Assembly: GCA_030266385.1 (NCBI GenBank)
Contig: JAJDHY010000001.1
Span: forward strand, 1 to 40,000
Source of the DNA: Desulfovibrio sp. OttesenSCG-928-I05
GTDB lineage: Bacteria; Desulfobacterota; Desulfovibrionia; Desulfovibrionales; Desulfovibrionaceae
DNA length: 40,000 bases
Direction: 5' to 3'
This document shows, in pieces, positions 1 to 31,276 of this stretch. Position numbers and translations under genes: made by a program. The notes below the pieces were generated by a model. It was not told the DNA's origin. It did no database searches and worked only from the letters and a program-made list of their open reading frames with translations. Each line of letters opens with the position of its first letter. Position 1 is the first letter of the stretch.

Positions 1-165
1 AGCAGGCAGACCAGCAGCCCGGCCAGCCAGAAGTGTGTTCGCGCCAGAGGCCGCATACTCATGTTATAGGGCATACCCGGCTTCCTTTTCATTAACAGCC
101 TCCGTGCTATAGAGTATTTATTGTACTGAAAATATATGTCGCCCATGTTTTAACTGTGATTACTT

Positions 166-1926
166 TCATGGAGTAGAATTTATTATGTAATATCCACTGA
201 CAAAACAGGAGGCGTTTGCATGATTCTTGCTGTCATCTTCCAAAAAGTAGATTGAACTGACGCCATCAGAGGAAACATTGGATACAATTCCTGTATAGCA
301 TACATGGCTGTCGTCATTGCTTTGTGCTATTTTGAATGCGTTGAGCAGAAAGGCATATTCTTTGACGGCAGTGTTGGGGGCTGACAACGGCGCTTTACCT
401 TGGATAAGGGTAAGCTTGAGGGCTTTTGGCAATTGGATCGATTTGCCGACTACAGATTTGTTGGCCTTGTGCCCGCTGTTGTCGGACATATACCCGCTCC
501 ACTTGCCGTCTTTGAAATCAACGCCATACTCTTTTAAATGATGGTCATCGCCTTTAAATTCAAAATTAAAGGCCTGTATGGCGGATATGGTTTCTGTTTC
601 TGCTTCCTTAAGTTTGTCCTTAGGGTATGCGACAACCACAACAGTGATATAGCTTTGAGCTTGAACTAGCTTGTGGCCTGAATCATCAGCCAGGGTTGCC
701 GATGTACTGATCTTGACGCTACGTTCGCCTATCAACTCGGATTTAAGCTTTACACCCAGCTTTTTTACATGATGATCCGTGCTGCCAAAGCTGAGATAAA
801 AGTCTTTGATTCCTGTAATGTAGGTTTCGTCACTGATATCAAAGTCGAAATCAAATACGCATGAGCCACCGGGCTTGAGGGTTTGATGCCGGACATAGTG
901 AGCGTATAGCGGAGTGAATATTTCTGTGGGGTCTTCTATAAATTCTGATTCGGCAGAATCCTCTTTGCCGACAGCGCCGGATATTTTTTCATATGTGACT
1001 ATTGCTCCGCCTTGGGCGTCTTTGGCGGCTGCAACTTTAATCTTGAGTATAGCCCACTTATCTGGATCTTCTGTTTCATATTCGCTGTTTGCAGAACCAA
1101 CGCAGAAAAACCTTCGTTTGGTATACCCTACGTCATCACTCTCTCCAGATGATTGAGCATCGAAGCAATGAGAATGTCCATAAACCATGGCAATTATATT
1201 GTAGCCTGAGATCACTTTCAGAAAACTATTTTGGTCGCGTTGGGGCCACCAGTCATATTCACCACCGCTGTGCTCAAACCCGTAATGCTGAAATATGATG
1301 ATAGGCTCATGCTTTCCGATCGCATTTAGGGAATTTTGAAGAAATCTTTTGGATTTATAGAAGAAGTGCCTGCCAGCATTATAGTATTTTATGTTCCTGT
1401 CATCGTCGCCCATGCCAAGATTGAGCATAATGAAGTGAAAGCGCACGCCTCCAACAACATGCGACCATCTGTAGTAAGCGTCTTTGTACTGCGGGTCAGC
1501 CAAATCGACACTTTGGTTGACGGATAATGCGATATATTCATTATCCTTCAACGCCTTTCTTCTATAATCCGCCTGAGCATTGGCGATAAACTCATATCGT
1601 CCCAAATACTTTGCATGTGAAACATCATATTCAATATATACATCGTGGTTGCCAAAGCCTTCGCAAACGACGAACCCATTCGAATCTTTATTTTTCCAGA
1701 CCGATAGATAGGCCGTATCGTCATCATCCTGATTGTCTCTTGTCAAATCGCCGGGTATGACGACATATTTACGCGTACACTTGTCCTTATCGTTTTTGAT
1801 GTATTTTTTGATGCTCTTGTTAATATCCTTGCTATAATCTGTAAAATCACCCTTTGGAGGGTGCCCGCAAAAATGAACGTCTGAAAAGGCATATATGATG
1901 AAATCATACTGTTCGGATTCTGTCAT
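166..1926 (-). CDS. Calcineurin-like metallophosphoesterase fused to a C-terminal three-fold repeat domain of unknown function
   Basis: 586-aa ORF with a strong SD (AAGGAGG about 7 nt upstream of the ATG at 1926). All five MPE motifs are visible: SDVH, PGDLTRD, GNHD, FQHYG, GHSHCF. No signal peptide. The C-terminal ~230 aa contain three degenerate repeats, each with D-(H/S)-H then D-(D/N)-S-(G/K)-(H/N). AT-rich composition. Confidence 0.85.
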   Translation of the reverse strand: MTESEQYDFIIYAFSDVHFCGHPPKGDFTDYSKDINKSIKKYIKNDKDKCTRKYVVIPGDLTRDNQDDDDTAYLSVWKNKDSNGFVVCEGFGNHDVYIEYDVSHAKYLGRYEFIANAQADYRRKALKDNEYIALSVNQSVDLADPQYKDAYYRWSHVVGGVRFHFIMLNLGMGDDDRNIKYYNAGRHFFYKSKRFLQNSLNAIGKHEPIIIFQHYGFEHSGGEYDWWPQRDQNSFLKVISGYNIIAMVYGHSHCFDAQSSGESDDVGYTKRRFFCVGSANSEYETEDPDKWAILKIKVAAAKDAQGGAIVTYEKISGAVGKEDSAESEFIEDPTEIFTPLYAHYVRHQTLKPGGSCVFDFDFDISDETYITGIKDFYLSFGSTDHHVKKLGVKLKSELIGERSVKISTSATLADDSGHKLVQAQSYITVVVVAYPKDKLKEAETETISAIQAFNFEFKGDDHHLKEYGVDFKDGKWSGYMSDNSGHKANKSVVGKSIQLPKALKLTLIQGKAPLSAPNTAVKEYAFLLNAFKIAQSNDDSHVCYTGIVSNVSSDGVSSIYFLEDDSKNHANASCFVSGYYIINSTP

Positions 1927-1985
1927 GGCTCTCCTCCTTACAAAAAAGTATTAAAAATTACCTGCTCCATTCTTCACGGCATAAG

Positions 1986-2023
1986 GCAAAAAAAGAGCCT
2001 GGAGGCGGAAAACCGCGTCCGGG
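1986..2023 (-). terminator. Terminator-like hairpin plus T-run on the minus strand, 60-100 nt upstream of the MPE start
   Basis: Minus strand reads CCCGGACGCGG-TTTT-CCGCCTCCAGG (11-bp stem, 2 mismatches), then CTCTTTTTTT. Confidence 0.4.
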
Positions 2024-2034
2024 CGAACAAATGT

Positions 2035-2061
2035 AAAAATCGCGCTTTTGAAAAAAAGCGC
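2035..2061 (-). terminator. Second terminator-like hairpin on the minus strand
   Basis: Minus strand reads GCGCTTTT-TTTC-AAAAGCGC (8-bp perfect stem), then GATTTTT. Confidence 0.35.
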
Positions 2062-2074
2062 ATATATAGTGGAG

Positions 2075-2112
<38 letters not shown>

Positions 2113-2330
2113 CAAAAGCCGTGCTACTATAGACGGCGGAACCGCCATCGGAAGCGGCTGGACACCGGCGATGGACTTTCTTTGTGCTCATGATTCTCTC
2201 TATTGTATATGGCTATTTTTTTGACATGGCTGTGTCATGAAGTCAAGGCGCATTATTCCATAAAAACCCGGTTCCTGGCGGCTGGAAAAGCAACGGAGTG
2301 ATGAACAATGCGGCATTCGGCGAGGGTTGC

Positions 2331-2642
2331 CTACGTCTTTTTAAGCCGCCTTTGCATTTTGTGTATCTTTTCTACTCCATAGCGTTTTGCAATCCATACA
2401 AGAAGGGTTTCCGTGTTATACACGATATTTCGCCCAACTTTATAGGCAATTTCCGGTCCTTCTCCTGTCGCATCGGCATTGGAGAGCGATTGATTCGCTA
2501 TAACTCCACCAAGGCACTTTTCAATTTGCTTTCGCGCAATATACGGGGGTAAGCTGTCAATGAACACCTGAACAAACTCATGCTCTGTCTCGGTAAGCTC
2601 TTTGCTTTGATACAAAACTTCCTTCCTCTTTTTGTAGGGCAA
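2331..2642 (-). CDS. Small hypothetical protein, possibly an HTH/excisionase-like DNA-binding protein
   Basis: 103-codon open frame in AT-rich DNA. There is no ATG start. TTG at 2642 has no SD, whereas TTG at 2612 is preceded by GAGGAAGGAAG. The pattern GEGPEIAYKVGRNIVY..LLVWI resembles HTH_17/Xis-type proteins; this is a weak call. Confidence 0.45.
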   Translation of the reverse strand: MPYKKRKEVLYQSKELTETEHEFVQVFIDSLPPYIARKQIEKCLGGVIANQSLSNADATGEGPEIAYKVGRNIVYNTETLLVWIAKRYGVEKIHKMQRRLKKT

Positions 2643-2716
2643 TATAGGTTAATGGTTCGCGGAAATAGCTACCGAAAAAATCGGCATAATTCAAGATGGG
2701 TACTCGTGTATTGCAC

Positions 2717-2747
2717 CATACCGTGACGTACCTTGAGAATTTTTTCC
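2717..2747. repeat. Degenerate third copy of the ICE att repeat
   Basis: CATACCgtgaCGTACCtTGAgaaTTTTTTC compared with attL CATACCtctgCGTACCcTGActtTTTTTTC: about 22 of 30 identical, same orientation. Confidence 0.35.
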
Positions 2748-2783
2748 TTTGAAATAATTTAATAAAAATATTTTTTGATAAAA

Positions 2784-2816
2784 AAAGACTGCTCCGAAAA
2801 AATCGGAACAGTCTTT
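2784..2816. terminator. Bidirectional rho-independent terminator
   Basis: AAAGACTGCTCCGA-aaaaa-TCGGAACAGTCTTT (14-bp stem, 1 mismatch), flanked by an A-run and a T-run. It lies 20 nt past the stop of the 2838-3050 gene. Confidence 0.6.
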
Positions 2817-2837
2817 TAGAAGGGTTTTCAAAAAGAT

Positions 2838-3050
2838 TTATTTATCTCGCACTGTTGCTATTGATATGAAGGTGCGCATCGCTTCCTGAATGGTCATTAC
2901 AGAGTGCATCAGGGGAAGGTGCAGGGGGTCGGAGCGGGCCTTTGTGTCATTCTGTGCTTGCTCTTCTGAAAACTTGAGAAGTTCGGAACGTAAAGCGTCC
3001 ATTGCCGCCTGAATAGACTTCAAATTGTCTGCTGTGGTTCCTTTTTCCAT
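2838..3050 (-). CDS. Hypothetical small protein (70 aa)
   Basis: ATG with SD AAGGAG, followed by the terminator. No recognisable motif. Confidence 0.55.
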   Translation of the reverse strand: MEKGTTADNLKSIQAAMDALRSELLKFSEEQAQNDTKARSDPLHLPLMHSVMTIQEAMRTFISIATVRDK

Positions 3051-3223
3051 GGCCTTACTCCTTTTTGAGCAGGGCGAAGGGAACGGTTTTCACAGCCAGA
3101 CTTGGGACGCCTGGGGGAAGCAGCCTTCCCTTGTTCTCCCCGTCGTACTGCCCGTTACAAGTTCATGGCCGGGCAAAATGCGGGTACTCTCCCAACAATA
3201 TAGTGACTGATTTTTTGTGAAAG

Positions 3224-3532
3224 TCAATACGGCTCCAAGCCCTGCGCTTCTCGTTTCACGTTCTCTTCCGCAAGCGTCACCAGATAGCCGAGCGGTTGAT
3301 TCAAAACCTGGGCCATACGCTGCGCATCTCCAAAAACAAGCCGCTGCTGCTTTCCCGCACGCTTTCCCTGGTAGCCCTCTGTAAGCAGCTTGATTTTTTC
3401 GTGTGCGCGTTTTTCGTCTTTGTCGTGCCATACCTTAATTGCAAATTCTTTTAAGGCGCTTTCCGTGCAACCGGCTTTTCTGACGACAAGCTGCACAAAA
3501 GCTCTCTCAAATTTCTCCGCATAAAATTTCAT
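3224..3532 (-). CDS. Hypothetical protein (102 aa)
   Basis: ATG at 3532 with SD GAGGT. It abuts the attL repeat directly. No recognisable motif. Confidence 0.55.
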   Translation of the reverse strand: MKFYAEKFERAFVQLVVRKAGCTESALKEFAIKVWHDKDEKRAHEKIKLLTEGYQGKRAGKQQRLVFGDAQRMAQVLNQPLGYLVTLAEENVKREAQGLEPY

Positions 3533-3533
3533 T

Positions 3534-3575
3534 CATACCTCTGCGTACCCTGACTTTTTTTTCGGGTCTGGCGGA
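3534..3575. repeat. attL-type direct repeat (ICE end distal to the tRNA)
   Basis: CATACC tct GCGTACCCTGACTT ttttttcgggtc TGGCGGA. It matches 31171-31206 in three blocks of 6, 14 and 7 nt. Confidence 0.7.
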
Positions 3576-3662
3576 ACAAGTTTCCGTACAGGCCTGACAA
3601 ATCATGCTATCCGGTCGAAAAATTCGGCATATATTGCCCCAATTTCAACCAAAGGGAAATGC

Positions 3663-3869
3663 ATGAAACAAATTCTTGAACGGTTTTATTCCGTACTTGG
3701 GAGCCCGTCAAAGGTTGCTTGCTACCTTCAATATTCGGACAGGCAACTCCGAAATATTCGGAAAAAGGTGGAGCTTGGCGAACCGCTCGATCCGCGTGTC
3801 GAGCTTTGGATAAAAACAAAGCACGATCTGCTGCATAACGCCCTCACAATCCAGGGCAAAGGAAAATAA
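3663..3869 (+). CDS. Small basic protein, possible HTH regulator; first gene of the leader operon
   Basis: 68-aa ORF with an SD-like AGGGAAA. The segment SPSKVACYLQYSDRQLRNIRKK looks HTH-like. Confidence 0.5.
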   Translation: MKQILERFYSVLGSPSKVACYLQYSDRQLRNIRKKVELGEPLDPRVELWIKTKHDLLHNALTIQGKGK

Positions 3870-3874
3870 CCCCT

Positions 3875-4189
3875 ATGGACGCCAACAAACGCAAGATAGC
3901 GCGAAACGCGGCGAAAGTTGAATTTCTTGCAAACGCGGAAGAAATTTTGTCGATGCTGGACAAGGGTTTTAACAAATTCAACGTTTATAGCGCACTCACA
4001 GAAAAAGGGCGTCTAACCATGGCCTATCGTTCGTTTTGCTGGAATTTGCAGCAATTCAAAAACCCGGAAAAGAGACAAAAAGAGAAAAAAGACACGCCAA
4101 AATCTATTGCTGCACCCCCCCTGCGGGTACCGGCAAAAAAAGAGGGCTTCGGGCAGCTTGAAGACGTTGATGTAAGCAAACTCGTTTAG
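3875..4189 (+). CDS. traK: TraK-like oriT-binding protein (RP4 leader operon type)
   Basis: 104 aa. Resembles my recollection of RP4 TraK in the N-terminal helix region and the C-terminal GF...D..KL tail. It sits directly upstream of the traL homologue. Confidence 0.65.
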   Translation: MDANKRKIARNAAKVEFLANAEEILSMLDKGFNKFNVYSALTEKGRLTMAYRSFCWNLQQFKNPEKRQKEKKDTPKSIAAPPLRVPAKKEGFGQLEDVDVSKLV

Positions 4190-4212
4190 CAAGGGCTGTT
4201 AACCATGAACAT

Positions 4213-27532: not shown

Positions 27533-27793
27533 TCACTCAAAATCAAGGTCGGTGAACTGAAAACCGGCGACGCCGGTATGGCAGTATTCGCCCCTGTGGT
27601 TGCGGATAAACAGGTGCTCCGCTTCCAGATCGGCAAGGGATAGCTCCCAACGGAACAGGGAAGGAACGGACAACTTTCTGACCTGATATTTGTCCACGGT
27701 GCCGGTTTTCCGCTGCTTGCTCCGCGCCCATTCAAGACGCTTTTCCAATGGCGAACTGACAACGAAAGGACGTATTCTCCCGCTATTGCTCAT
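27533..27793 (-). CDS. Hypothetical protein (86 aa)
   Basis: ATG at 27793 overlaps the upstream gene's stop by 11 nt. No recognisable motif. Confidence 0.5.
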   Translation of the reverse strand: MSNSGRIRPFVVSSPLEKRLEWARSKQRKTGTVDKYQVRKLSVPSLFRWELSLADLEAEHLFIRNHRGEYCHTGVAGFQFTDLDFE

Positions 27794-28952
27794 GGCTGTT
27801 TGCCCCGCCTTCACCGTGCCCCCCCATTTGCGGGCCTGGCTCCTTTTCCCTGTCGGGCCAGATATGTTGCCGGAAGTGCTGTCTAAGTCGGACTGCTGCC
27901 GGAATGGCAATGCGGTTGTCAGGCCCAAGTATTTCTTGGCGGGCGTCAGGGGTCAGGCTGGCGATCCAGGCGTCCGCTTCGGCTTCACGGCGAGCCTCAT
28001 AGGCTTTCTTCTCCCGGCGCGTGGTCGCTTCGCGGTCACGCTCGGCCTGTTCTGCGGGGGATATGTAGGCTGCGGGGCGGGGGTAATATCCTTGTGTCGC
28101 AAGGATTTTGAATACCCAATTCAGCGGAGTTGAAACGGGTTCGCCCTTGTGGGTGGTCATGCACTCGCGGGCAAGCTCCCATTCCGCATAGGTCAAGCCC
28201 TGCATGATATGCTCAAGCGTTTCACCTACCTGGGCGCGGCGTTGCATGATTTGCCGAATCTGAACCGTGCCGAAACCGACGCGGGCCAGTTCGGGCCAGT
28301 GAAAGGCTATGTCCTCTTCGGAAAGGGATTCCAGAAGTGCGCTATACCTTTTTGAATTTTCAGAAGAGATAGAAAGAATATTTCTATCTATCTTTTCTCT
28401 TAGAATAGAGGGGGCAAAATCGGCGTCAGGGTGGACGCCGGGGTGGACGGCAGGGTGGACGGGTGCGCAAAGGCATGGCCCTGCCGCTCTGATGTGGGGG
28501 CAAAGCATTTCTTGAATGAGGGTGAAGGTAACGCCCTGGCTGGTGCCTACCTTGGCCTGTTTGCGGCGTAAATAGCCGCGATTCACAAGACGCTCGACAC
28601 TTCGGCGGACGGCTCCGGGGGATCGTATCATTGAGTACACTCGCTCCAATTCGGCGGACAGTTGCTTGTACGGGGTCACGGTTGGCCCGATGGCAAGCAA
28701 CAGCCCGATAATGTTGATTTGTGCGGCTGAAAGCCCTTTGCGGCATGAAATACGGTTGATGTCGTCGGGGATTTCAGGATGGACGCCGGGGTGGACGTCA
28801 GGGCGGACGGGGGGCAGGGTGGACGCCAGGGCGCACGTCAGGTCGCACGCTAGGGTGGACGGGTGGACGTCAGGCTGGACGCCAGAATGGACGCCAGGGT
28901 GGACGCCCGCATGAGAGCCGCCAGGGGCGGTAATCATGCTTGCCGCGCTCAC
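27783..28952 (-). CDS. Winged-helix DNA-binding protein, Rep-like, with VHPG-type repeats
   Basis: The GTG start overlaps the alpA stop (GTGA). MarR-like wHTH (YKQLSAELERVYSMIRSPGAVRRSVERLVNRGYL). Repeats V-H-P-G flank it. Confidence 0.7.
   Translation of the reverse strand: MSAASMITAPGGSHAGVHPGVHSGVQPDVHPSTLACDLTCALASTLPPVRPDVHPGVHPEIPDDINRISCRKGLSAAQINIIGLLLAIGPTVTPYKQLSAELERVYSMIRSPGAVRRSVERLVNRGYLRRKQAKVGTSQGVTFTLIQEMLCPHIRAAGPCLCAPVHPAVHPGVHPDADFAPSILREKIDRNILSISSENSKRYSALLESLSEEDIAFHWPELARVGFGTVQIRQIMQRRAQVGETLEHIMQGLTYAEWELARECMTTHKGEPVSTPLNWVFKILATQGYYPRPAAYISPAEQAERDREATTRREKKAYEARREAEADAWIASLTPDARQEILGPDNRIAIPAAVRLRQHFRQHIWPDREKEPGPQMGGHGEGGANSHEQ
28426..28466. repeat. 12-nt repeat cluster 1 inside the Rep-like CDS (3 units, GGTGGACG core)
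   Basis: GGTGGACG at 28430, 28442 and 28454. Confidence 0.85.
28776..28912. repeat. 12-nt repeat cluster 2 inside the Rep-like CDS (about 12 units)
   Basis: Minus-sense units are GTCCACCC and variants. The spacing is 12 nt except for one 8-nt and one 16-nt unit. Confidence 0.85.
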
Positions 28953-29350: not shown

Positions 29351-29663
29351 GAAAAATGAACGGTCAGCATGGGTACACATTGATCGTTATTTTTCGTTGG
29401 TATGATTCACTATTGTGGGCTTACCCCGTTCTTTCCTGGGTACACTTGGGGCTATCCGGCCTTCTGTTCCTGGGTACACTTGGGTACACCCTGGTTCCGG
29501 CTTGAGGCGGCCTGACTGCTGCGGGCTTCGGAACCAAAAAAGAACGGTCAACGTGGGTACACATTAACCGTTCTTTTTTGTTGCTATTGCTAGGTTTTGT
29601 GAGACTTAGGCTTGCCTTCCTGGGTACGCTTTGGGCTATGCGGCCTTCGATGCCTGGGTACAC
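29351..29663 (+). repeat. Two tandem ~184-bp modules carrying seven TGGGTACAC sites
   Basis: TGGGTACRC at 29370, 29437, 29471, 29481, 29554, 29621 and 29655. Each module starts with an A-run/T-run-flanked hairpin that has the motif in its loop. Confidence 0.85.
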
Positions 29664-31006
29664 TCCGAGGTAAAGTCTGGCAGGGTCAAAGCCCTGATCT
29701 GCTCGGTTTGGTTTTCCCGGCTGGCGGTAGCCTTCAAATTGTCCAAATAATCCGCGTAATCTTGCATCATTTCAGTGCGAGAAGGCAAAAACTCAGCCTT
29801 GTCGTATGTCGCCTTTGCGGATTCTTTTTCAATCGTATGGGACATTTGCTTGTAGATTACGTCCGAACTGTACTCAAACTTTTCTTTGCAGTTGGTAACG
29901 AAGGCATGACGCCAGCCATGTCCGCACATTTCGCCCTTGTAGCCGATACGGGCAAATACCTTATTCATGGCCTCAATGGTGATATGGCCTGTCTGCGCAA
30001 GCTGCGAATGGAAAATATACTTATTCCCGCCAGTGTAACCGTGCAGTTCTTTCAAAAGGCTGACGGCTTGCTTTGAAAGCGGCACGATGAAGTCTTTCCC
30101 GTTCTTCATCCTCTCGCCGGGGATTAGCCATTGGCTTGCGGCCCAATCTATTTCGCTCCATTCACCCTCTACCATGTGAGAGGGGCGCAAAAAAACGTAA
30201 GGCAAAATTTTGGCTGCATAGCAGACTTCAATGCTTCTGCGGCTCTTGGGTTTATCCACTGAACCTTGGGCGTATTGGTCAATATGCAGTAAAAGATGCC
30301 CGATTTTTTCGGGATCGGTAATGCTCGGAAGGCTGTTGTTCTTGGAAGGCTTGGTGAAATTCAAGCCCTTCCAGATCGCATAGGCCGGGTTATGTTCGCA
30401 CTTACCCAAAGCAACGCCAAAGTTGAAAATGCTGACTGTCTTTTCGGCAACCTTCTTTAAGGTCGTGTATTTGCCCGCGTCTTCAAGCCCTTGAAACAAA
30501 GGGCGTATATGCTCCTGCGCCTTCACGTCCTTGATAAGAAGGTGCCCTAACGGCTGGATCAGGTGTTTCCTGATCCGCTTGGCTTCGGCAATAAACGTCT
30601 TCTTTTTCCACTTTTTTTGCACGTCGGAAAGCCAATCTTCGGCTATGGCCCCCAGGCTGTCCGGGTGGCTCTCGCCCCTGGCGATACGCCTTTCTTCGGT
30701 GAAAACGGCAAGCTGTTCTTCGTGCTTGGCCTTTCGTGCCTTGGCGGGGTTTTCACCTCTGTCTAGCTGCTGCCGCAACTCAAAGTTGGCTTCCCGCGCT
30801 TCTTTCAGGCTCATAAATGGAAAATTGCCAAGAGTCAGGTTTTGTTCCTTCCCCATATAAAAGTATCGTGCCCGCCAGATTTTATTTTGGCTGGTGACGA
30901 AAAGCATAAGCCCATTGCCGTCGGACAGTTTGACAGGGGTTAGTTTGCCGGTTTTTGTGTTCAGTTTGGGCTTTGCCGCCTCAATTCCTTTGATAGTCAA
31001 CGCCAT
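29636..31006 (-). CDS. int: Tyrosine integrase, P4-like (N-terminal arm-binding domain)
   Basis: 456 aa. N-terminus MALTIKGIEAAKP...LSDGNGLMLFV. C-terminal catalytic HGWRHAF and a downstream Tyr. Adjacent to the tRNA. Confidence 0.95.
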   Translation of the reverse strand: MALTIKGIEAAKPKLNTKTGKLTPVKLSDGNGLMLFVTSQNKIWRARYFYMGKEQNLTLGNFPFMSLKEAREANFELRQQLDRGENPAKARKAKHEEQLAVFTEERRIARGESHPDSLGAIAEDWLSDVQKKWKKKTFIAEAKRIRKHLIQPLGHLLIKDVKAQEHIRPLFQGLEDAGKYTTLKKVAEKTVSIFNFGVALGKCEHNPAYAIWKGLNFTKPSKNNSLPSITDPEKIGHLLLHIDQYAQGSVDKPKSRRSIEVCYAAKILPYVFLRPSHMVEGEWSEIDWAASQWLIPGERMKNGKDFIVPLSKQAVSLLKELHGYTGGNKYIFHSQLAQTGHITIEAMNKVFARIGYKGEMCGHGWRHAFVTNCKEKFEYSSDVIYKQMSHTIEKESAKATYDKAEFLPSRTEMMQDYADYLDNLKATASRENQTEQIRALTLPDFTSECTQASKAA

Positions 31007-31126: not shown

Positions 31127-31171
31127 AGACAAAAGAAAGCCGGGAAGCCTTCTATAACAAGACTTCCCGGC
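31127..31171 (-). terminator. Rho-independent terminator for tRNA-Asp, supplied by the ICE side
   Basis: Minus strand reads GCCGGGAAG - 15-nt loop - CTTCCCGGC, then TTTCTTTTG. Confidence 0.5.
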
Positions 31172-31199
31172 ATACCAGGGCGTACCCTGACTTGAAAAC

Positions 31200-31206
<7 letters not shown>
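31171..31206. repeat. attR-type direct repeat (tRNA-proximal ICE end)
   Basis: CATACC agg GCGTACCCTGACTT gaaaac TGGCGGA. The TGGCGGA is the complement of the tRNA 3' end TCCGCCA. Confidence 0.7.

Positions 31207-31276
<70 letters not shown>

Follow-up and report, generated by a model that had tools for sequence, protein, structure and literature searches.

What does a bacterial protein do when one half of it is a readable enzyme and the other half belongs to no named family? The question is raised by a gene near one end of a 40,000-nt stretch of Desulfovibrio sp. OttesenSCG-928-I05 (C1:1-40000; called the window here), which belongs to a metagenome-assembled genome that is 54% complete. The product, P0001, has 586 residues and is encoded by a single ATG-initiated open reading frame (ORF) of 586 codons with an intact frame. 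P0001 is a variant of a known enzyme superfamily, the calcineurin-like metallophosphoesterases, and its C-terminal part belongs to a domain family that is real although it has no name. The gene and the elements of its N-terminal domain are arranged as follows.

166 to 1926 (stop codon included), minus strand: whole gene for the metallophosphoesterase–beta-prism fusion P0001, from the ORF translation
1931 to 1939, minus strand: Shine-Dalgarno sequence AAGGAGGAG, strong, 4 nt ahead of the ATG
922 to 1926, minus strand: calcineurin-like metallophosphoesterase domain, residues 1–335, from PF00149 and Foldseek against the PDB
1165 to 1896, minus strand: PF00149 match, residues 11–254, from the Pfam profile
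1873 to 1881, minus strand: motif I, D16-V-H18 (Asp in 6 of 6 aligned members, His in 5 of 6)
1747 to 1752, minus strand: motif II, G59-D60 (invariant in the six-member alignment)
1642 to 1653, minus strand: motif III, G92-N-H-D95 (invariant in the six-member alignment)
1285 to 1287, minus strand: motif IV, H214, within FQHYG (invariant in the six-member alignment)
1168 to 1179, minus strand: motif V, G250-H-S-H253 (Gly and both His invariant in the six-member alignment)

The N-terminal domain is genuinely a calcineurin-like metallophosphoesterase with a complete set of catalytic residues, because it passes the PF00149 threshold, keeps the ligand residues and has a model that matches metallophosphoesterase folds. 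Queried alone, residues 1–330 score 30.9 bits against PF00149 (Metallophos; E 4.6e-7, model positions 3–190 of 191), for which the gathering score is 21.5 bits. The same cut-off is passed by four of the five relatives of P0001, and the fifth, P0006, matches below it. The full-length 586-residue query returned no Pfam match at E ≤ 1 with hmmscan, and no NCBIfam match at E ≤ 1 except one spurious match far below its cut-off; whole-protein scans can therefore hide a metallophosphoesterase domain. Across the six-member alignment D16, D60, N93, H94, D95, H214, H251 and H253 are unchanged, and H18 is lost in one member only, the N-terminally divergent fragment P0006. A first-pass annotation, made from the letters of this DNA, had listed five phosphoesterase motifs and placed the protein in this superfamily, and the profile score, the conservation of the motifs across six members and the Foldseek results bear it out on both counts. 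Its further remark that the enzyme is probably active holds as far as the metal and catalytic residues are concerned, for that set is complete; activity itself would appear likely from the sequence.

The structural comparison points the same way. An AlphaFold model of full-length P0001 (predicted local distance difference test score, pLDDT, 79; predicted template-modelling score, pTM, 0.68) gave 65 Foldseek matches in the PDB at E ≤ 1e-3, and the listed ones are all metallophosphoesterases. The top match is the purple acid phosphatase 1ute (E 1.8e-7, template-modelling score 0.55, target-normalised). Purple acid phosphatase, SMPDL3A/B, Rv0805, Lmo2642 and GpdQ were all matched at a Foldseek probability of 1.0 (E 1.8e-7 to 2e-5), as were acid sphingomyelinase and 2',3'-cyclic-nucleotide phosphodiesterases/nucleotidases. 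Mre11/SbcD enzymes appear only among the lower-ranked fold matches (4o43, E 1e-4; 9bi5, E 1.9e-4). Sequence searches of the PDB with P0001 and with the family profile yielded chance matches only, at E > 0.2.

P0001 thus has the binuclear metal site of the PF00149 family with its five motifs, shows the alpha/beta sandwich fold and passes the Pfam threshold. Its nearest solved relatives (1ute, which is mammalian; SMPDL3A/B, 5fc1/5kar; Rv0805, 3ib7; Lmo2642, 2xmo; and GpdQ, 3d03) are 11–15% identical to it, and none of the solved relatives has a domain like its C-terminal one. Membership in the purple acid phosphatases was considered and rejected, as the fold is shared but the GDxxY/DxG signature is absent. 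In purple acid phosphatases the GDxxY motif supplies the Tyr ligand of Fe(III). These enzymes have D-x-G and GDxxY where P0001 has D-x-H (DVH) and GDLTRD, and P0001 therefore lacks this Tyr ligand.

The C-terminal domain is made of three repeats, which are placed as follows.

169 to 921, minus strand: C-terminal all-beta pseudo-threefold domain, residues 336–586, from the AlphaFold (AF2) model, the family search and a match to PCSK9
616 to 888, minus strand: repeat 1, full unit of about 90 residues, residues 347–437 (73 bits, E 6e-24)
451 to 594, minus strand: repeat 2, trimmed unit, residues 445–492 (29.8 bits, E 1.6e-10)
208 to 387, minus strand: repeat 3, trimmed unit, residues 514–573 (16.6 bits, E 2.2e-6)

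The scores are those of a repeat-unit hidden Markov model (HMM) built from 114 units of 38 canonical family members, with P0001 and its orthologues excluded. Because all three matches are significant, the three-fold repeat is real; the maximum over 300 shuffles was 4.6 bits. Each repeat carries two short motifs: DHH at residues 384–386 and DDSGH at 414–418 in repeat 1, DHH at 461–463 and DNSGH at 482–486 in repeat 2, and DSH at 539–541 and DDSKN at 564–568 in repeat 3. The repeats are unequal, the first being about 90 residues long and the other two about 50–60. Of the earlier description of three repeats of some 60–75 residues each, the number stands and the even size does not.

An exhaustive phmmer search of 1.84 billion sequences with residues 328–586 recovered 116 family representatives (clusters at 50% identity) at E ≤ 1e-3, many of them with three matched stretches. 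The family unit is about 50–95 residues long and consists of a D-H-H-[VL] loop followed, 25–30 residues on, by a D-x-S-G-[HN] loop, three times per protein. Most representatives (98 of 116) are 200–330 residues long, 3 of 116 have at most 160 residues and 12 of 116 exceed 480. Proteins consisting of this domain alone mostly have 280–300 residues, and P0106 and P0108 are single-repeat proteins of 105–106 residues. In domain numbering the invariant residues are D57, H58, H59, D87, H91, D134, H135, H136, D155, D212, H214 and D237. The triple-repeat family is spread over several phyla, and the named members, from Lysobacter, Longimicrobium, Anaeromicrobium, Tannerella and Clostridiales, are all annotated as hypothetical. 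Their accessions include WP_215835692.1 (Lysobacter sp. K5869), WP_141228314.1 (Anaeromicrobium sediminis), WP_331878688.1 (Longimicrobium) and MBD5089145.1.

No library names this family. Searches of Pfam, NCBIfam, PHROGs, PADLOC and the PDB sequences gave no match to the C-terminal domain of P0001, and ten family members gave no credible Pfam family, only scattered tiny fragments on the low-complexity protein P0073. When PHROGs and NCBIfam were searched with both domains, the members and the small ORFs near the gene, the sole match was that of P0014 to a PHROG of unknown function (E 0.0035). A protein atlas search with the domain produced nothing usable, and a literature search for the DHHV motif turned up no relevant paper. 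The first-pass annotation could not assign the domain to any family, and in every library tried it stays unassigned; nor does it match any characterised lectin or wall-binding family, the kind of match that had been named as evidence against that claim.

The domain is also found in a second fusion architecture. In P0014, P0025, P0037, P0039, P0054, P0058, P0072 and P0076 it is N-terminal and precedes a conserved domain of about 300 residues that has invariant H-x-Q-G and H-P-G-G-x-Q elements; the truncated P0010 carries this partner domain as well. No Pfam or PDB sequence match was found for the partner, which also stands alone in two genomes (L015 and L016) among 400 searched in a second phylum, with no copy of the P0001-type domain there. 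Since it is fused to different partners, the P0001-type domain is a mobile module. It defines a coherent, confidently foldable family present in several phyla and without a solved relative or a library name, and its fusion in P0001 to an enzyme whose active site can be read offers an experimental handle on the function of that family.

What does the domain look like? Its AlphaFold/AF2 model (pLDDT 92.1, pTM 0.88, from a 29-sequence alignment) is all-beta, with a four-strand core in each repeat and with the DHH and DxSG motifs both in loops. With high confidence the prediction is of a pseudo-threefold beta-prism and not of a trefoil; the prism architecture is supported because all of the best structural neighbours are pseudo-threefold or trimeric beta assemblies. 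Of the two folds guessed at in the first-pass annotation, the model and the structural search thus uphold the pseudo-trimeric beta-prism, as an architecture, and speak against the trefoil-like alternative. Foldseek found nothing in the PDB at E ≤ 1e-3 for this model; its best sub-threshold rows are APCbeta of apicomplexan perforin-like proteins (E 2.8e-3) and the C-terminal domain of PCSK9. A BFVD structural search likewise returned nothing at E ≤ 1e-3. In VIA-align comparisons (48,161 chains and a second look) the PCSK9 C-terminal domain ranked first, at Z 7.0–7.5 and a root-mean-square deviation (rmsd) of 3.7–4.1 over about 160 residues, where by calibration a Z below 8 may reflect a common arrangement only and not homology. 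This match spans both domains whole (model residues 15–257 against PCSK9 454–682, with 6% identity) and outscores the jacalin-type beta-prisms, which come next, by about 3 Z units.

The Cys/His-rich C-terminal domain of PCSK9 (3p5c, 2qtw, 7anq) resembles the prism of P0001 in having three tandem beta modules in a pseudo-threefold arrangement. The two differ in that the prism has only 3 Cys in 259 residues and so lacks the disulfide-rich pattern, that it is bacterial and cytoplasmic, and that its DHH/DxSG motifs have no known counterpart in PCSK9. Membership in the PCSK9-type domains with their resistin-like modules was rejected on the 6% identity and the 3 Cys in 259 residues; the PCSK9 domain is therefore an analogue of the prism and not a member of its family.

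The next group of neighbours bears on whether the prism might be a lectin. Jacalin-type beta-prisms reach Z 3.5–4.6 over about 105–114 residues (core residues 47–240), APCbeta reaches Z 3.6–4.3 and a single-chain C1q head Z 4.0, and repeat 1 by itself aligns with H-type lectins (Z 3.6 and rmsd 2.8 over 79 residues for HPA, 2ccv; Z 3.6 for discoidin, 2w94). Jacalin-like (beta-prism I) lectins, APCbeta and H-type lectin trimers all share with the prism a threefold arrangement of small beta sheets. It is conceivable, though we judge it quite unlikely, that the prism is a lectin-like carbohydrate binder and that the enzyme acts on phosphorylated glycans or sugar phosphates, with envelope precursors or host or dietary polymers as its substrates, possibly after their release by lysis. 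The place of jacalin-type lectins directly after PCSK9, the likeness of a single repeat to H-type lectins and to the membrane- and sugar-binding APCbeta domains, and the presence of GpdQ and enzymes like purple acid phosphatase among the closest phosphoesterase folds would fit such a role. As a further lead, and no more than that, the partner domain of the second architecture lies in the protein atlas close to clusters of fucose-lectin-like and propeller-like proteins. However, all of these lectin similarities fall within the range common for unrelated beta folds, there is no sequence-family match to jacalin-like, APCbeta or H-type (PF09458) domains or to any other Pfam lectin at E ≤ 1, and no lectin sugar-binding motif was identified in the prism. 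A cytoplasmic location also argues against it. P0001 has no signal peptide, as motif I already begins at residue 14, in keeping with the first-pass reading of a cytoplasmic protein, and only one of the 116 prism representatives has a signal-like N terminus.

How, then, might the two domains work together? We lean, slightly beyond an even chance, toward P0001 being a horizontally acquired cytoplasmic two-domain enzyme whose prism recognises the target of its phosphodiesterase or phosphatase. The N-terminal half, divergent but complete, would act as a binuclear metallophosphoesterase and hydrolyse a phosphoester bond, with D16, H18, D60, N93, H214, H251 and H253 as the expected metal ligands and H94 as the expected catalytic histidine. 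The three tandem beta units, each with its D-H-H and D-x-S-G-(H/N) loops, would pack as a pseudo-threefold prism; the single-repeat proteins of the family would have to trimerise. The prism could then be an autonomous module for recognition, one that either guides the catalytic domain to its target or gates hydrolysis, and the target could be a small molecule, a polymer or a protein. An autonomous module is proposed because the prism occurs alone across phyla, as three-repeat and as single-repeat proteins. Given the fusion, what the prism binds should relate to what the phosphoesterase cuts. As to the substrate, a nucleotide-derived phosphodiester or phosphomonoester is our first choice, a tentative one that is more likely to prove wrong than right. 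It is made by analogy with the closest phosphoesterase folds, whose substrates are mostly nucleotides, cyclic nucleotides and small phosphodiesters.

Alternatively the prism could have no ligand at all and do no more than stabilise or regulate the catalytic domain, whether as a structural cap, as a scaffold for oligomerisation or as a His/Asp-rich module that holds metal. The invariant loop residues are Asp and His, which suit metal coordination or capping networks, the D-x-S-G-N loop may be likened to EF-hand-type D-x-D-G-D loops, and many metallophosphoesterases carry cap domains. Nevertheless, most of the family consists of standalone proteins with three repeats or one, so that the module functions independently of any phosphoesterase, and a ligand-free prism seems to us very doubtful. 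The distinction matters: as a sensor or targeting module the prism would be a new recognition domain among the accessory genes of mobile elements, and as a scaffold only it would bring a modest gain in annotation.

Several considerations weigh against target recognition by the prism. The analysis establishes the identities of the domains, the repeat, the predicted fold class, the rarity of the protein and its genomic setting, and from these a binding role of the prism, the class of substrate and any biological role are inferred; a purely structural or oligomerisation role of the prism would fit the data equally well. The prism has only weak structural matches (Z below 8, 6% identity), and the N-terminal half of the full-length model is moderately confident (block pLDDT 50–87). 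The gene context is uninformative as well, the neighbouring small ORFs all being orphans and the contig ending 165 bp past the stop codon.

P0001 is a rare protein. Word-index searches of 5.8 billion proteins place it in a phosphoesterase clade of six clusters, the other five being two full-length orthologues (72% and 44% identity), a standalone 325-residue domain, a protein with a different N-terminal extension and a fragment from Clostridia. The two orthologues are P0002, with 73% identity in the N-terminal and 71% in the C-terminal domain, and P0003, with 49% and 42%; judged from these values, the two domains are under similar constraint. Neither 40 related genomes, of which 36 are at least 90% complete, nor 400 other genomes of the phylum yielded P0001, and the C-terminal family appears in only one of those 400, as a weak single-repeat match. 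In tblastn searches plasmids gave one weak match to the N-terminal domain, on a Sinorhizobium megaplasmid, and neither phages nor viral contigs gave a relative; the canonical family member P0012 matched nothing in plasmids or phages. Genome contigs and JGI metagenomes contained only distant generic phosphoesterases at 25–29% identity. The homologues of P0001 sit on short contigs of 1.5–4 kb, and P0122 and P0127 on contigs of 17 kb and 122 kb.

Where does such a gene come from? Its surroundings hold two features of note.

100 to 3533, no strand: low-GC islet that contains the phosphoesterase gene together with orphan small ORFs, flanked on one side by a GC-rich gene start at the contig edge and on the other by the distal attachment (att) site
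3534 to 3556, plus strand: distal att-like direct repeat of an integrative and conjugative element (ICE), with a partner at 31171–31193 that is identical at 20 of 23 positions

The islet measures 3.4 kb, and GC content is 0.39–0.47 over positions 1–4000 versus 0.53–0.62 beyond. The partner repeat lies 7 nt from the 3' end of a tRNA-Asp gene (31200–31276), and a weaker third att-like copy is found at 2717–2739. The ICE genes in the window encode a tyrosine integrase, a relaxase, NikA, an SLT transglycosylase, topoisomerase III, ArdC, a coupling protein, homologues of VirB4/6/8/9/10 and ParA. As the 23-nt direct repeat bounds the ICE, the phosphoesterase gene lies outside it. The GC profile and the att copy of this tRNA-Asp ICE confirm the first-pass picture of a low-GC islet beside an integration site with the phosphoesterase gene as its largest cargo; it is in fact the sole large gene there, and the small ORFs of the islet have no match in any library tried. 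Horizontal acquisition is the best explanation for the gene because of its low GC content, its absence from the 40 related genomes and the 400 of the phylum, and the ICE att copy alongside it. A genome of the same genus (locus L009, G001:C47) has two tandem tRNA-Asp genes (3455–3531 and 3609–3688) adjoining an ABC-F gene, and beyond them shows no similarity to the islet (window 1–4000), which is consistent with an unoccupied site.

Given this setting, the gene could be a passenger left by an old integrated element, non-functional and in decay. The remnant-like islet, the degenerate att copies and the orphan ORFs, together with the perfect GA repeat and the terminator-like hairpin that lie upstream, would suit that view. 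We consider it exceedingly improbable, for the 586-codon frame is intact behind its strong Shine-Dalgarno sequence, all catalytic residues are kept and full-length orthologues persist at 72% and 44% identity. In addition, mismatch-free short pieces of the locus occur in contigs from two further studies, at 862–1012 within the gene and at 42–276 over its 3' end. The sequencing runs that best cover the stretch carry the label insect gut metagenome.

The same setting invites a role in conflict between bacteria and their parasites, a possibility to which we give modest weight. P0001 would then be a single-protein defence or counter-defence module in which the prism senses an infection-derived ligand or protein and the phosphoesterase depletes nucleotides, degrades a nucleotide second messenger or cuts nucleic acid. 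The rare, patchy, phylum-crossing distribution and the position in a low-GC islet adjoining an ICE at a tRNA site are in line with this, and SMPDL3A-like enzymes are among the closest folds. Two precedents exist: the PUA-Calcineurin-CE-HAD anti-phage module, in which a ligand-recognition domain is fused to a calcineurin-like effector acting on nucleotides (bioRxiv 10.64898/2026.01.15.699771), and the phage metallophosphoesterase Gp48, which is used against host immunity (PMC12287305). Both, however, are related to P0001 at the superfamily level only. Against a conflict role, PADLOC-DB 2.0 (5027 models) has no family for P0001 at E ≤ 1 and none for either domain, six relatives or the neighbouring ORF at E ≤ 0.1. 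PHROGs have no match for P0001, phages and viral contigs hold no relative, and no recognisable defence genes stand beside the gene within the window. A defence or counter-defence role, which the first-pass annotation had called conceivable, remains so, the evidence neither supporting nor refuting it.

The comparison with the PUA-Calcineurin-CE-HAD module can be taken one step further. P0001 would share its sensor-effector design principle, but the sensor is PUA-like there and a beta-prism here, the window shows no gene for a HAD partner, and there was no PADLOC match. A more specific and unlikely proposal is that the DHH/DxSG triple repeat is a hitherto unknown family of ligand-sensing beta-prisms, occurring alone, as a trimerising single repeat and in fusions with at least two different partner domains, so that in P0001 a molecule derived from infection or stress would switch on a nucleotide-directed phosphodiesterase within one polypeptide. 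If true, such a protein would follow the same logic as PUA-Calcineurin-CE but would use a sensor of a wholly new kind.

The region upstream of the gene has some features of its own. A perfect (GA)16 tract lies at 2079–2110, about 150 nt ahead of the start codon, and the Logan contigs from both source-sample runs break at 2071–2121, at this tract. Rfam returned only sub-threshold small RNA matches over positions 1–4200, and there is therefore no known riboswitch upstream of the gene. Farther upstream is an orphan ORF of 103 residues (2331–2642, minus strand), the C-terminal half of which we take to read like a small excisionase or AlpA-type DNA-binding protein, a likeness that no library supports. 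On the other side, the stop codon of the gene is 165 bp from the first base of the contig. Positions 1–62 of the minus strand hold the GC-rich start of an ORF, MSMRPLARTHFWLAGLLVCL, which is signal-peptide-like and runs off the contig at base 1. A search of the assembly for a continuation of the contig showed no other contig end that overlaps it. Synteny with the same-genus genome suggests that this ORF continues in contig C125 (G000), whose high end has a Gly-rich, autotransporter-like open frame.

Two repeats were observed within the ICE region. A GGTGGACG-type motif recurs with a period of 12 nt at 28398–28909; its eight copies overlap and form two clusters separated by about 340 nt. The copies are within or adjoining a 389-residue ICE ORF (27783–28952, minus strand) without a Pfam match, and they look like iterons or a repetitive coding segment. 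A direct repeat of 129 nt, 76% identical between its copies at 29352–29480 and 29536–29664, is found just past the 3' end of the integrase, and its second copy overlaps the 3' end of the integrase gene itself (29636–31006, minus strand).

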